Shown here: one piece after another, positions 2,246 to 11,226 of the stretch
How the letters are laid out: the number at the start of each line of letters is the position of its first letter
Numbering within the stretch: position 1 is the stretch's first letter
Source of the DNA: an uncultured Clostridia bacterium
GTDB lineage: Bacteria; Bacillota; Clostridia; TANB77; CAG-508
Direction of reading: 5' to 3'
DNA: 38,240 nt
Assembly (NCBI GenBank): GCA_947628015.1
Contig: CANQYG010000002.1
Span: forward strand, 1-38,240
The notes under the pieces: model-generated
Databases searched by the model: none
What the model saw: the letters and a program-made list of their open reading frames with translations, nothing else
What the model was told of the DNA's origin: nothing
Made by a program: the position numbers and the translations under genes

Positions 2246-2271
2246 AATTTATATTTTAGAAGGTGACAGTT

Positions 2272-3030
2272 ATGGTATATGTAGATAATTTTGGAAATAT
2301 AATTGAAAATTCTAATATAAACTTTTCTAATATTGATTCTATAAATTTTGAATTAGATAAAAAGTATAAAAGTACTAATCCAGCACTAAGTATTAAATTT
2401 TCTAATAATATTGAAAAAAATATAAAATATATACAGAAATTATTAGATTTTCAAAAATTACATATAGACTTTATGACGGAATATAATGGCAAAAAAATAA
2501 AATATGTAATTTCTAATTACAATAATGATGTGAAAATAGCATTAAAAGCACTTTTCATAAATAATTCTAAAAAACAATATTTATTTTTATATGATAACAT
2601 TTTTAAATCTTTAGATATATTGTGGAATAAAAATAATCCATGTAAATTTTGCAATAATATATGTTCTGCATCAAAAAATAATAAATCAGCATATAAAGAA
2701 AATGGATGTTGCTATTCATTTGACTATTCTAAAAATATATTCAAATTTATTGATAATGTAAAATTATGCAAATATCTTGGTAAAGATAAAAATTGTATGA
2801 CAGAGAATATATCTTGTAAATTTTTTGCATGCAATTATTTAAAAAGAAATAATATATTTAATATTGATATGAAAAATTATATTCTTGTTCAAGCTTTCTT
2901 TAATAAAAAGCAAAAATTAGTTTTGAAATATAATTATTTTAAATCTAAAGAGGAAATTATAGAAAAACTTATAGAAAAAAATAATACACCATTTTTAATA
3001 TATTATTTTTTTAGTAAATATAGAATATGA
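2272..3030 (+). CDS. Cysteine-cluster protein, YkgJ/UPF0153 (CxxCxxCC, FliB-like) family candidate
   Basis: The ORF track starts at GTG 2263, but ATG 2272 has better SD spacing (GAAGGTG acagtt ATG). Cys pattern is C-x2-C-x3-C ... CC ... C-x8-C-x6-C-x4-C. The family call is from motif memory only. Confidence 0.45.
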   Translation: MVYVDNFGNIIENSNINFSNIDSINFELDKKYKSTNPALSIKFSNNIEKNIKYIQKLLDFQKLHIDFMTEYNGKKIKYVISNYNNDVKIALKALFINNSKKQYLFLYDNIFKSLDILWNKNNPCKFCNNICSASKNNKSAYKENGCCYSFDYSKNIFKFIDNVKLCKYLGKDKNCMTENISCKFFACNYLKRNNIFNIDMKNYILVQAFFNKKQKLVLKYNYFKSKEEIIEKLIEKNNTPFLIYYFFSKYRI

Positions 3031-3052: not shown

Positions 3053-3245
3053 TTTATTAATGTAAAAACTTAATAAAAATTAATATATGAAAAATATAGC
3101 ATAGTATAAGTATAAAATCAAGAAAATAAAAATTAAAAGTTTGTAATAATTTAATAAAAAATGAAAAGTAAAGATTTTATAAAAAGCTTGAGGAAAGCTG
3201 ATTATAAGATTTTTTACTTTTTTATTAAGTTTTTACATTAATAAA
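3053..3245. promoter_or_regulatory. IR-bounded switch-like element, copy 2 (candidate invertible promoter)
   Basis: Perfect 27-bp inverted repeat tttattaatgtaaaaacttaataaaaa (3053-3079) / tttttattaagtttttacattaataaa (3219-3245) encloses 139 bp. Inside is a minus-strand promoter TTGATT-17-TGcTATATT (3121 down to 3093). An imperfect hairpin spans about 3164-3221 with an inner AGCTT/AAGCT stem (3185-3189 / 3195-3199). Confidence 0.6.
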
Positions 3246-3279
3246 AATAACATAATGTGAAAATGGAGGTTTTAAACAA

Positions 3280-4110
3280 ATGAAATGTAAGGAAACACAA
3301 GAACAAGAAAAGATTAATTTACAGTTAATAAATAAGAAAAAAGTACAAAAATTAAAAGAAAAAGGAATAACATTAATAGCATTAGTAGTAACAATAATAA
3401 TCTTATTAATATTAGCAGGAGTAACATTAAATATGGCACTATCAGGAGATGGACTATTTAACAAAGCAAAATTAGCAATAAATAAATATGATGTAGCAAG
3501 TGAACAAGAAGTATTACAACAACAAATAATAGAATATCAAATGGATAATAATATAGATAAAATAGGAGAAAAATTAACAAATAGAAGTGTAACAGATAGC
3601 AGTTGGAAGGTAATACAATTAAATAATTCAGATAAAAACTATGGAACAAATTATTACTATATACAAAAAGATATTGCTGAGATACCTAATTATGGAAAAG
3701 CAAAATATAATTGGGTAATGAATTATGAAACAGGAGAAGTAATAAATATAGAAGAATATACAAAATTAGATGGTAATTCAGGAATATCAGTAACAGATAA
3801 CATAGCTTTGAATATAAATCCAATAAATTTGAGTGATAAAACTTCATGGGGAAGTAATGTAAATTTTATTGGTAATGAAGAAGAATCGGAAAACTCAGGA
3901 GTACAAGGAACAGAATTAAAATTTGATGGAATAGATGACTACCTAAAAATAGATAATGTAAAAATTGAAGAAAATGATGGAATTACATTTGAGTTTTATG
4001 GTACATTTGACGGAGACTGCTTGTATCCTCTTGAGGCATTAAAGATTAATGAAGATAATGTACCTTGTGGTGTGAAAGGATTTAGGATGGAGGTTCGGTT
4101 GGGCAAATGA
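3280..4110 (+). CDS. Pilin-like N-terminally anchored surface protein, paralog B, N-terminal portion (frame-disrupted)
   Basis: It has the same leader and hydrophobic helix as paralogs A and C (KEKGITLIALVVTIIILLILAGVTL). The C-terminal part begins a LamG/concanavalin-like domain (ELKFDGIDDYLKIDN...), which continues in the next ORF in another frame. Confidence 0.7.
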   Translation: MKCKETQEQEKINLQLINKKKVQKLKEKGITLIALVVTIIILLILAGVTLNMALSGDGLFNKAKLAINKYDVASEQEVLQQQIIEYQMDNNIDKIGEKLTNRSVTDSSWKVIQLNNSDKNYGTNYYYIQKDIAEIPNYGKAKYNWVMNYETGEVINIEEYTKLDGNSGISVTDNIALNINPINLSDKTSWGSNVNFIGNEEESENSGVQGTELKFDGIDDYLKIDNVKIEENDGITFEFYGTFDGDCLYPLEALKINEDNVPCGVKGFRMEVRLGK

Positions 4111-4111
4111 G

Positions 4112-4531
4112 GTGGTTACTTGCTGCTTCGGAATTGGAGATAGCGAGAGCGATATCAAAGATAATTATAGAGGACAACACTGGTTTACCTTTGAGAATAT
4201 TGGTTCGATAAAAAGTAATACTCCTGTCTATTTTTCGATTTCTGTTAATTATAAAACTGGTAGTGTTAATTTGTATTGGATGGGAGAGAATGGTACACTT
4301 ATTTGTAGAAGTACAATATGTTCTACGGAATATTTGAATAAAGGTAGAGAACTTATGAAGGACGCATCATATTGTGTTGGTGGTTATTATGGAGGAAATA
4401 ATCCTCATGCGTCATATTCTAAGATGAATTTGTATGCTTGTAGATTATATAATAGGATATTAGATTCTACAGAGGTAGAAAGAAACTTTAATGAAAGCAT
4501 TAATTATCGTAAATATTTAATGGAAAATTGA
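4112..4531 (+). CDS. C-terminal LamG/concanavalin-A-like lectin domain fragment of paralog B (frame open from 4076)
   Basis: It ends with the LamG_3-like signature ...SKMNLYACRLYNRILDSTEVERNF. It has no SD of its own. It overlaps the end of 3280..4110 in the +1 frame. Confidence 0.6.
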   Translation: MVTCCFGIGDSESDIKDNYRGQHWFTFENIGSIKSNTPVYFSISVNYKTGSVNLYWMGENGTLICRSTICSTEYLNKGRELMKDASYCVGGYYGGNNPHASYSKMNLYACRLYNRILDSTEVERNFNESINYRKYLMEN

Positions 4532-9692: not shown

Positions 9693-9761
9693 TTAATTTT
9701 TCTCATTTTATTTCAATATTTTCTTTCATTTTAAGATTTTATGTTCAAATAAAAAATTATA

Positions 9762-9947
9762 ATTAATGTAAAAACTTAATAAAAATTACTATGTTAGAAA
9801 TATAGCATAATATCAATATAAAATCAATAAAATAAAAATTAAAAGTTTGTAATAATTTTATAGAAAATAGAAAAGAAAAATTTTATAAAAGCTTAAGGTA
9901 AGCCTATTATAAGATTTTTTACTTTTTTATTAAGTTTTTACCTTAAT
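9762..9947. promoter_or_regulatory. IR-bounded switch-like element, copy 3 (candidate invertible promoter)
   Basis: 24-bp inverted repeat attaatgtaaaaacttaataaaaa (9762-9785) / tttttattaagtttttaccttaat (9924-9947), with one mismatch (9767 vs 9942), encloses 138 bp. Inside is a minus-strand promoter TTGATT-17-TGcTATATT (9827 down to 9799). An imperfect hairpin spans about 9871-9926 with an inner GCTTA/TAAGC stem (9891-9895 / 9899-9903). Confidence 0.6.
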
Positions 9948-9984
9948 AAAAATAACATAATGTAAAATTGGAGGGATAAAACAA

Positions 9985-11226
9985 ATGAAATGTAAGGAAA
10001 TACAAGAAAAAGAAAAGATACTTAATAAGAAAAAAGTACAGAAATTAAAAGAAAAAGGAATAACATTAATAGCGCTTGTTGTAACAATAATAATATTGTT
10101 AATATTAGCAGGAGTGACATTAAATATGGCAATGTCAGGAGATGGATTGTTTAGCAAAGCAAGAGATGCAGCAGATAAGTATAAAAAAGCACAAGAAAAT
10201 GAAGAAAAAATATTAGAAGAAGTAGTAGATGATATGGAAAACATAAATATTGATTACAACGATTATGTTGGAGCATATGTAGAAGGATATGAACCAACAA
10301 GCGGAACTTGTACAATAAAAGGAACACAATCTGGAAAAAATGAGGATAAAACATTTTCTACAACAGGAGAAACAAAAGGTATAGAATGGAGAATCTGGGA
10401 CTATGATGGAACAACAATAAGATTAATATCCGATAAGCCAACAGAACAAACATTAACATTAACTGGAACAAATGGATATAATAATGGAGTATGGATAGTA
10501 AATGAAATTTGTAGGCAATGTTTTGGTCAATATGAAAATGGAGAAATGAAACAGGGAATAAATGTGGCAAATTTAAGGAGAAGTGATATTCAAAAGATAA
10601 GTACATATGATTATACCAAATTTGCACGTGTGAATGGAGACTGGGAAGATAAAGAAAATGGAGATATAAAATATGGAAGTAGCAAACCATATAGTAATTC
10701 AAAAAATCCTAAAATATGGGTAAATTATGATAAAAAATGGGAATATGAAAATAAAGATGGTGTAGGTAGTGGAGAAGATAAAGAAGGACTAATATTTGAA
10801 GAAGAAGGAACAAATGATGAAAGTATTGATGGATTGGGTGAAAGTGAGGATATTACCACGATTAAACAATCTGTATATTCACATAGGTATATAAAAGAAG
10901 ATTTTAAAAATATGAAATATTATGATATTATTTTTAATGGAAAAGATTACGAAGATGATTTTTGGTTATCAACACGAGGGTGTAATGTTCAGGATACTTT
11001 TTGTGATTTTGGATTAAACTATATTGCAATACATAGTGGAAATGAAACTTATGTAGTTTTAGAATCAATTACCAATACAACAGGTGGTTTGGGACTTAGA
11101 GAAACACAAACGAAGAAACTACGTCCTATTGTTTCAATAAATTTAAAGAGTAGTGGATATTCATTAAAAAAGATAAGAGGCTCTGACGGAAAAGTAGGTT
11201 TTAAGTTACAACAGAGTGGGAGCTAA
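9985..11226 (+). CDS. Pilin-like N-terminally anchored surface protein, paralog C (intact)
   Basis: 413 aa with the same leader and helix (KEKGITLIALVVTIIILLILAGVTL). It is colinear with paralog A (YVGAY..GY.PTSG.CTI, WRIWDYDGTT, GYNNGV, CRQCFGQYE, VANLRRSDI, LRPIVSINLK). Confidence 0.8.
   Translation: MKCKEIQEKEKILNKKKVQKLKEKGITLIALVVTIIILLILAGVTLNMAMSGDGLFSKARDAADKYKKAQENEEKILEEVVDDMENINIDYNDYVGAYVEGYEPTSGTCTIKGTQSGKNEDKTFSTTGETKGIEWRIWDYDGTTIRLISDKPTEQTLTLTGTNGYNNGVWIVNEICRQCFGQYENGEMKQGINVANLRRSDIQKISTYDYTKFARVNGDWEDKENGDIKYGSSKPYSNSKNPKIWVNYDKKWEYENKDGVGSGEDKEGLIFEEEGTNDESIDGLGESEDITTIKQSVYSHRYIKEDFKNMKYYDIIFNGKDYEDDFWLSTRGCNVQDTFCDFGLNYIAIHSGNETYVVLESITNTTGGLGLRETQTKKLRPIVSINLKSSGYSLKKIRGSDGKVGFKLQQSGS

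Follow-up and report, generated by a model that had tools for sequence, protein, structure and literature searches.

A family of putative promoter invertons upstream of prepilin-like genes in uncultured gut Clostridia

The element at positions 3053 to 3245 of a 38,240-nt stretch of DNA from an uncultured Clostridia bacterium (GCA_947628015.1, contig CANQYG010000002.1; hereafter the window) is very probably an inverton that puts a prepilin-like surface-protein gene (position 3280 onward) under ON/OFF phase variation. Most likely it is a genuine example of a known device in a new and unusually large family, and it would introduce no new principle. Its notable aspects are the high copy number, a co-variation that localizes the likely crossover region, and the apparent control of an uncharacterised protein family. 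The window contains three switch elements (687-882, 3053-3245, and 9756-9953, copies 1 to 3), each located 30 to 35 nt upstream of a paralogous ORF (917-2077, 3280-4110, and 9985-11226, respectively; the latter two are referred to as paralogs B and C). An earlier sequence-only reading had recognized the layout shared by copies 1 and 2, each upstream of a paralog, which our analysis confirms; the third copy was absent from it.

The inverted repeat of copy 2 is formed by a gene-distal left arm (3053-3079) and a gene-proximal right arm (3219-3245), neither assigned to a strand, which were delimited from the sequence itself, by a repeat finder and by alignment of the arms. The arms are 27 nt long, 100% complementary and separated by an interior of 139 nt, in agreement with the coordinates given by the sequence-only reading. 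With a GC content of 27% to 28% in the window, chance complementarity is a genuine concern. The longest perfect inverted repeat within 300 nt was 11 to 14 nt in 60 first-order Markov simulations of the window; since the simulated maximum is 14 nt, arms of 27 nt are far beyond chance for AT-rich DNA. Copy 2 is thus a short segment of 139 bp bounded by perfect 27-nt repeats. Its left arm is composed of an outer half-site TTATTAA (3054-3060), an unconstrained T/G position (3061), an asymmetric 7-nt centre GTAAAAA (3062-3068) and an inner half-site CTTAATAA (3069-3076) followed by an A-run. The right arm contains the inner half-site TTATTAAG (3222-3229), the centre TTTTTAC (3230-3236), the equivalent of the T/G position (3237) and the outer half-site TTAATAA (3238-3244). 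No Rfam family matches the switch region.

The other two window copies are built alike and are also in the OFF orientation: copy 1 (687-882) has arms at 687-715 and 854-882 with the centre CTAAAAA and precedes the ORF at 917-2077, and copy 3 (9756-9953) has arms at 9756-9785 and 9924-9953 with the centre GTAAAAA and precedes the ORF at 9985-11226. Copy 3 is also carried, in the same OFF orientation and with two substitutions in its hairpin, by a 1.1-kb contig from another sample (L050), a comparison obtained by way of a YihY-like protein (Pfam Virul_fac_BrkB) whose gene lies upstream of this copy.

The interior is predicted to carry one outward-facing sigma-A-type promoter with an extended -10 element beside one arm. 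In copy 2 the promoter-like site is on the minus strand at 3093-3121, pointing away from the gene (OFF), with a -35 element TTGATT (3121-3116), a 17-nt spacer and an extended -10 element TGcTATATT (3101-3093). The gap between it and the left arm is 13 nt, as it is in copy 1; strand, spacer and distance had all been noted from the sequence and were found again here. The assignment draws on the sequence, on an alignment of 48 elements and on the layout in divergent species. Outside the hairpin described below, the invariant interior columns of the 48 elements are TA.CA and CAA, that is, minus-strand TGnTA and TTG with a 17-nt spacer, so that the segment would hold a promoter facing the gene in one orientation only. 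The same layout is kept in L020, L026, L040, L056, and L060, which come from other species and have diverged surrounding sequence. A generic promoter scan is uninformative in such AT-rich DNA (27% GC), with 82 sites found vs 86 expected; the case for the putative promoter is therefore one of conservation, not of consensus score.

A long AU-rich hairpin with an apical AGCUU/AAGCU stem occupies positions 3163-3222 of the plus strand, as judged from folding and co-variation, and continues through UUUUUUAUU into the right arm. Its predicted stability on the plus strand is -20.6 kcal/mol (z = -5.1; 0 of 200 shuffles as stable), and a weaker mirror-image hairpin of -12.6 kcal/mol is found on the minus strand. 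In the OFF state the hairpin and the U-run behind it (UUUUUUAUU) face the gene in the manner of a terminator. A simple terminator scan did not call the hairpin because its stem is AU-rich and bulged. Downstream of the right arm, a conserved 5' leader (AATAACATAATGT..., 3246-3279, plus strand) includes the ribosome binding site GGAGG at 3265-3269, and the sequence conserved among paralogous units spans the proximal arm and the leader and extends into the gene. A small inverted repeat between the proximal arm and the leader was considered as a further structural element and rejected, with no co-variation and a fold that is not significant (z = -1.0).

From this anatomy we propose the following mechanism. 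In the OFF state, as assembled, the promoter would fire leftward, away from the gene, while the hairpin and U-run directly before the proximal arm would block read-through into it. Site-specific recombination between the two centres would flip positions 3062-3236 and produce the ON state, in which the promoter would lie about 14 nt from the proximal arm, with its -10 element at about 3200-3205 and transcription starting near the mirrored position 3212. The ON mRNA would then have a leader of about 68 nt, which would span the proximal arm and the conserved leader with its ribosome binding site (3265-3269) and lead to the ATG at 3280, and the hairpin would shield the promoter from transcription arriving from upstream. 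In Clostridioides difficile, the OFF state of cwpV depends in part on transcription termination. On the other side of copy 2, a Cys-rich ORF of 255 amino acids (2263-3030), which has no Pfam or NCBIfam match and no identical protein on record, lies directly upstream; its stop codon is only 22 nt away from the arm, and transcription from the OFF-state promoter would therefore enter it in antisense.

An indication of what the arms do comes from their comparison across the family. Every element was written with its gene to the right, and its left arm was compared with the reverse complement of its right arm. Every arm contains the site TTATTAA(T/G)-N7-CTTAATAA, with the common core TTATTAA-(T/G)-N7-C-TTAATAA, in which the outer 7-8-mers are inverted copies of each other and the middle 7 nt are asymmetric (consensus GTAAAAA). 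In 67 of 78 elements both arms have the same 7-nt centre, compared with a mean of 18.5 and a maximum of 31 when partners are shuffled (10,000 trials), statistics that overstate independence because the elements are paralogues inheriting both arms together. The number of distinct matched variants is a more honest measure: the centres that agree between left and right arm comprise at least 15 different sequences (GTAAAAA, CTAAAAA, TTAAAAA, GAAAAAA, ATAAAAA, GTAAAAC, TAAAAAG, TAATAAG, TAGAAAA, TATAAAA, GATTAAA, TTAAAAG, GAATAAA, GAAAAAG, and GTTAAAA). The adjacent T/G position, 3061 in copy 2, agrees between partners in 40 of 78 elements vs 35 expected (p = 0.15), and the combinations T/T, G/T, T/G, and G/G are all common.

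These results sharpen an argument of the sequence-only reading, which had pointed out that copy 1 has GC where copy 2 has TG in the left arm, with matching complements in the right arms, and had taken both positions as compensatory changes. The letters are as described, and the second position, inside the 7-nt centre, does co-vary, whereas the first is the T/G position and is mismatched in copy 3 (TG in the left arm vs the equivalent of GG in the right). Independent divergence of the two arms, which had been named as evidence against a functional repeat, does occur at the T/G position and does not occur at the centre. The argument was therefore right in kind and too broad in extent. The 7-bp centre is likely the region of a homology-dependent step, that is, of strand exchange or crossover. 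With about 90 copies, at least 15 matched centres and a free neighbouring base, the family amounts to a natural mutagenesis series that maps this likely strand-exchange region. We also considered centre variation as a means of insulating a switch from its neighbours. About 10 of 15 adjacent pairs have different centres, no excess over the roughly 75% expected from the variant frequencies, and the idea was dropped.

Two functions had been offered for the inverted repeat, a recombination site and a long-range RNA helix, and the way in which the arms and the hairpin accumulate substitutions separates them. According to the second, the arms would pair within one leader RNA that starts upstream, forming a helix for attenuation or processing, and the DNA would never invert; the arms would indeed make a 27-bp helix, and the consensus structure from RNAalifold takes them in. 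In the 48-sequence alignment, 16 of the 22 arm pairs do not vary, four have changed on both sides and no pair has changed on one side only; G·U intermediates are absent. About half of the elements have a mismatch at the T/G position, and in an RNA it would be a G·A or U·C pair, not a wobble. The enclosed hairpin behaves in the opposite way, with one-sided G·U changes at 7 of its 12 pairs and double changes at 3. Because G·U cells outnumber A·C cells by 37 to 7 in the hairpin, its evolution indicates selection as plus-strand RNA, the strand read toward the gene in the present orientation; the earlier remark that the central hairpin varies in sequence and keeps its structure across copies is thereby borne out, with compensatory changes. 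The RNA-helix reading also leaves the ribosome binding site outside the helix and puts a terminator-like hairpin inside the supposed leader. We reject it as scarcely credible, because the arms lack G·U intermediates and the interior is found both ways round between fixed flanks (see below). Of the two functions, it is the recombination site that is supported: the arms appear to evolve as duplex DNA that needs identity in two places, as expected of a DNA crossover site rather than an RNA helix.

Automated typing of the family gave 61 elements in OFF orientation (promoter away from the gene), 1 in ON orientation and 31 unclear, the untyped ones having mostly truncated genes or a promoter variant outside the regular expression used for typing. 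Those of the unclear elements that were read by hand are OFF except for one, L035:54-240, which is ON. In the two ON copies, L039:53-239 and L035:54-240, the interior is exactly reversed between the arms while flanks and arms are unchanged. Both are located at contig ends, with the breaks exactly at the inner edge of an arm. Their partners stop in the same manner: contig L019 breaks off at its 5' end where the distal arm of the L039 switch has its inner edge, and contig L014 does so at its 3' end, at the inner edge of the proximal arm in the L035 switch. Both contigs overlap their ON partners by 77 nt, including about 50 nt of unique flank. The 3' ends of L018 and L025 likewise fall at an inner arm edge. 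An assembly that branches after a k-mer containing unique flank must have met two continuations at that locus in the sample, and a mixture of orientations gives exactly that. Other contigs in several samples were observed to end inside these gene arrays. Switches of this kind fragment metagenome assemblies, which matters for MAG quality and for the annotation of such genomes.

The positional orthologue of the L039:53 switch is OFF in two other samples (L102 and L103), where it has the same rare centre GTAAAAC and is followed by the same WG_beta_rep, ACPS, TatD, and M23 peptidase genes. No identical locus was found in both orientations across samples (six for P0007, four for P0137, and L050 for copy 3, all OFF). 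Look-ups of P0122, P0035, P0169, and P0027 gave only OFF elements or contigs ending inside gene arrays, an exact-protein look-up of paralog B returned nothing on record, and a homologue search with the L014 protein returned no close relatives. Another reading is a real inverton family in which copy 2, or every copy in the window, is a relic, locked or in decay, and can no longer invert. In its favour, OFF is the only orientation seen in the three window copies and in all cross-sample comparisons, paralog B is frameshifted, and a few members of the family, with mismatched centres, may be locked. On the other hand, the arms of copy 2 are perfect and its promoter and hairpin intact, features that decay would erode, as is seen in the small number of copies with mismatches. 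If 25 or more loci in a genome share expression, each locus is moreover expected to be ON in only a small fraction, and consensus assemblies would therefore nearly always show OFF. We consider a relic improbable.

About 90 distinct elements with the same anatomy were collected from rabbit- and human-gut Clostridia contigs and MAGs, at least 25 of them complete elements from a single MAG (Lapin-007__bin23, GCA_947591055.1). A scan for the arm pattern with one genome per species gave 49 loci, nearly all in MAGs of uncultured Clostridia from rabbit gut ('Lapin'), with a single human-gut MAG besides; human-gut relatives also came from a metagenome scan. Further elements were added by a second genome scan and several protein look-ups. 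The second scan, with a proximal-flank pattern that was too strict, returned 15 stretches with nine new loci, eight of them OFF elements and one a chance match. Many elements belong to tandem arrays, in which switch-gene units repeat about every 1.5 kb. A scan of viral sequences found single arms only and hence no phage link. A small-genome lineage of uncultured rabbit- and human-gut Clostridia would devote dozens of loci to switching one uncharacterised surface-protein family.

A few members depart from the common plan. L008:2461 is a solo arm beside a strong TTGACA-17-TATAAT promoter, and the switch at L053:4555-4728, on a human-gut contig, has the same distal flank and switch as L071 and L034, with no gene after its proximal arm; both are possibly products of recombination between different switches. 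An extra promoter-like site (TTGACT-17-TAAAAT type) is seen between the proximal arm and the gene in L024 (5382-5568 and 7397-7582), L084, L086, and L088, and transcription from it would escape control by the orientation of the switch.

A repeated element of about 190 bp with terminal inverted repeats, present in dozens of copies per genome and including a solo arm and a gene-less copy, also resembles a MITE-like non-autonomous transposon, whose place before genes would be incidental. Several observations speak against this, and we regard it as very improbable. Target-site duplications do not exceed the control, and the flanking repeat is only 1 nt long in 68 of 88 elements. Among typable elements the spacing to the start of a related gene is similar, and the conservation does not end at the repeat but continues through the proximal arm into leader and coding sequence. 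The orientation relative to the gene is 61:1 by automated typing, where independent insertions would be expected to give about 1:1, and the interior holds a conserved promoter-like site and a hairpin apparently selected as RNA.

The recombinase would be encoded elsewhere in the genome and serve all copies, in the way of C. difficile RecV or Bacteroides fragilis Mpi. No tyrosine or serine recombinase was found by Pfam among the 28 ORFs of the window, nor any recombinase by ORF clustering and by tyrosine and serine motif scans in 580 kb, then about 708 kb, of related loci, so the enzyme would have to act in trans. The core sites of tyrosine recombinases (loxP 13-8-13, FRT, dif 11-6-11) consist of inverted binding elements around an asymmetric overlap of 6 to 8 bp, which sets the polarity and is identical in the recombining partners. 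The arms described here resemble a recombinase core site of this kind, with inverted half-sites of 7 to 8 bp (TTATTAAk / CTTAATAA) flanking an asymmetric 7-bp centre that is identical in the partners of 67 of 78 elements; the likeness to loxP, FRT, and dif is one of geometry and co-variation. A tyrosine recombinase is the more likely enzyme because arm identity is enforced across the whole 7-bp centre, within the 6 to 8 bp of such overlaps, and not at a central dinucleotide, a choice over a serine enzyme that depends only on site geometry.

The same switch could be flipped by a serine invertase of the Mpi or Hin type, and no recombinase of either class is found in the window or the roughly 708 kb of related loci. 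The serine enzyme Mpi of B. fragilis does flip many short promoter segments from a distant locus (PMC5903667). The co-variation here, however, covers centre positions 1 to 4 and 7 rather than a 2-bp core, and the odd number of 7 bp leaves no central dinucleotide on the dyad axis, again an argument from geometry only. We consider a serine enzyme rather unlikely, less so than the alternatives to inversion discussed above. A full Hin/Gin-type system was rejected as a model, with the odd 7-bp centre co-varying along its length, no adjacent recombinase and a 139-bp interior filled by promoter and hairpin.

Most mechanistic knowledge of invertible promoters comes from Bacteroides, Escherichia coli, and C. 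difficile. The fimS switch of E. coli is an invertible promoter for a fimbrial gene, in which a tyrosine recombinase (FimB or FimE) binds half-sites flanking a short inverted repeat. The elements described here would share with it an invertible promoter before a structural gene of fimbrial or pilin type, but fimS is a single 314-bp element with 9-bp inverted repeats and adjacent recombinase genes, and here the element is multi-copy, with a 139-bp interior and no adjacent recombinase. The RecV switches of C. difficile (cwpV = Cdi1, flagellar flgB = Cdi4, and others) are similar in being short repeat-flanked segments just upstream of surface-structure genes in AT-rich Clostridia. Several unlinked switches are served there by a distant tyrosine recombinase, about 7 switches with dissimilar inverted repeats (PMC5903667), in contrast to the nearly identical repeat and cassette present here at least 25 times per genome before one hypervariable gene family. 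The Mpi capsule invertons of B. fragilis, in which Mpi acts on at least 13 regions (PMC5903667), are comparable in having many dispersed related promoters and, as proposed here, one recombinase in trans and combinatorial surface variation. They differ in the serine recombinase, the phylum and the polysaccharide operons under control; here single protein genes are concerned, and the 8-7-8 site points to a tyrosine enzyme.

The genes downstream of the switches belong to one family, with 51 members in the first set of loci. In all three window ORFs, KG/ITLIALVVTIIILLILAG comes after a long basic leader at the N-terminus. Prepilin-like features, the motif KG/ITLIALVV and a long N-terminal helix, are present, and position +5 is Ala, not Glu. 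Pfam N_methyl scores are 16 to 17 bits (16.9 for paralog B) vs a cut-off of 21.2. NCBIfam gave no relevant match to the pilin-like proteins, only a sub-threshold one to FliL, Pfam and NCBIfam gave no identification of the C-terminal domains, and a literature search for the N-terminal motif found no match. The AlphaFold model of paralog C (9985-11226) is confident (pLDDT 85.9, pTM 0.77) and has two long N-terminal helices and a beta-rich head, and Foldseek returned no match to it in the PDB at E ≤ 0.001. At least 1,959 homologues exist in the protein collection, none named and none with a Pfam domain, and the best non-self match is 52% to 57% identical. The controlled gene of copy 2, paralog B (3280-4110, plus strand), likewise has KG/ITLIALVVTIIILLILAG in a prepilin-like N-terminus and is variable in its C-terminal part. 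Its reading frame stops at 4108-4110, and a frame open from 4076 to 4531 reads like its natural continuation (DLGWRFGWANEVVTCCFGIG). A 1-nt frameshift thus appears to split a protein of about 415 amino acids, which could be due to a pseudogene, an assembly error or slippage.

A broader reading is that the family constitutes an undescribed antigenic-variation system, with at least 25 switchable genes per genome, products combining a pilin-like helix with hypervariable heads that have no relative in the PDB, and one recombinase acting in trans; we put this forward tentatively, as plausible but less likely than not. If it were true, an individual cell would expose only one or a few out of many possible filament or adhesin subunits, and the system would be a protein-level counterpart of Bacteroides capsule switching and an alternative to pilin gene conversion of the Neisseria type.

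The switch is also seen before genes outside the pilin-like family. The element at L102:14114-14300 precedes a secreted protein with LRR_5 repeats, followed by a sortase, and that at L085:195-382 precedes a 148-aa membrane protein, itself located before a pilin-like gene. Because of its place before the LRR_5 protein next to a sortase and before this small membrane protein, it appears to be a general surface-protein switch in the lineage. Upstream of copy 1, the ORF at 92-658 contains the motif GDILSGKTAYVKGAKINGSM, which recurs in the C-terminal head of the L039 pilin-like protein (GDILNGKKAWVEGTQLTGSM), and may be a fragment of another member of the pilin-like family.
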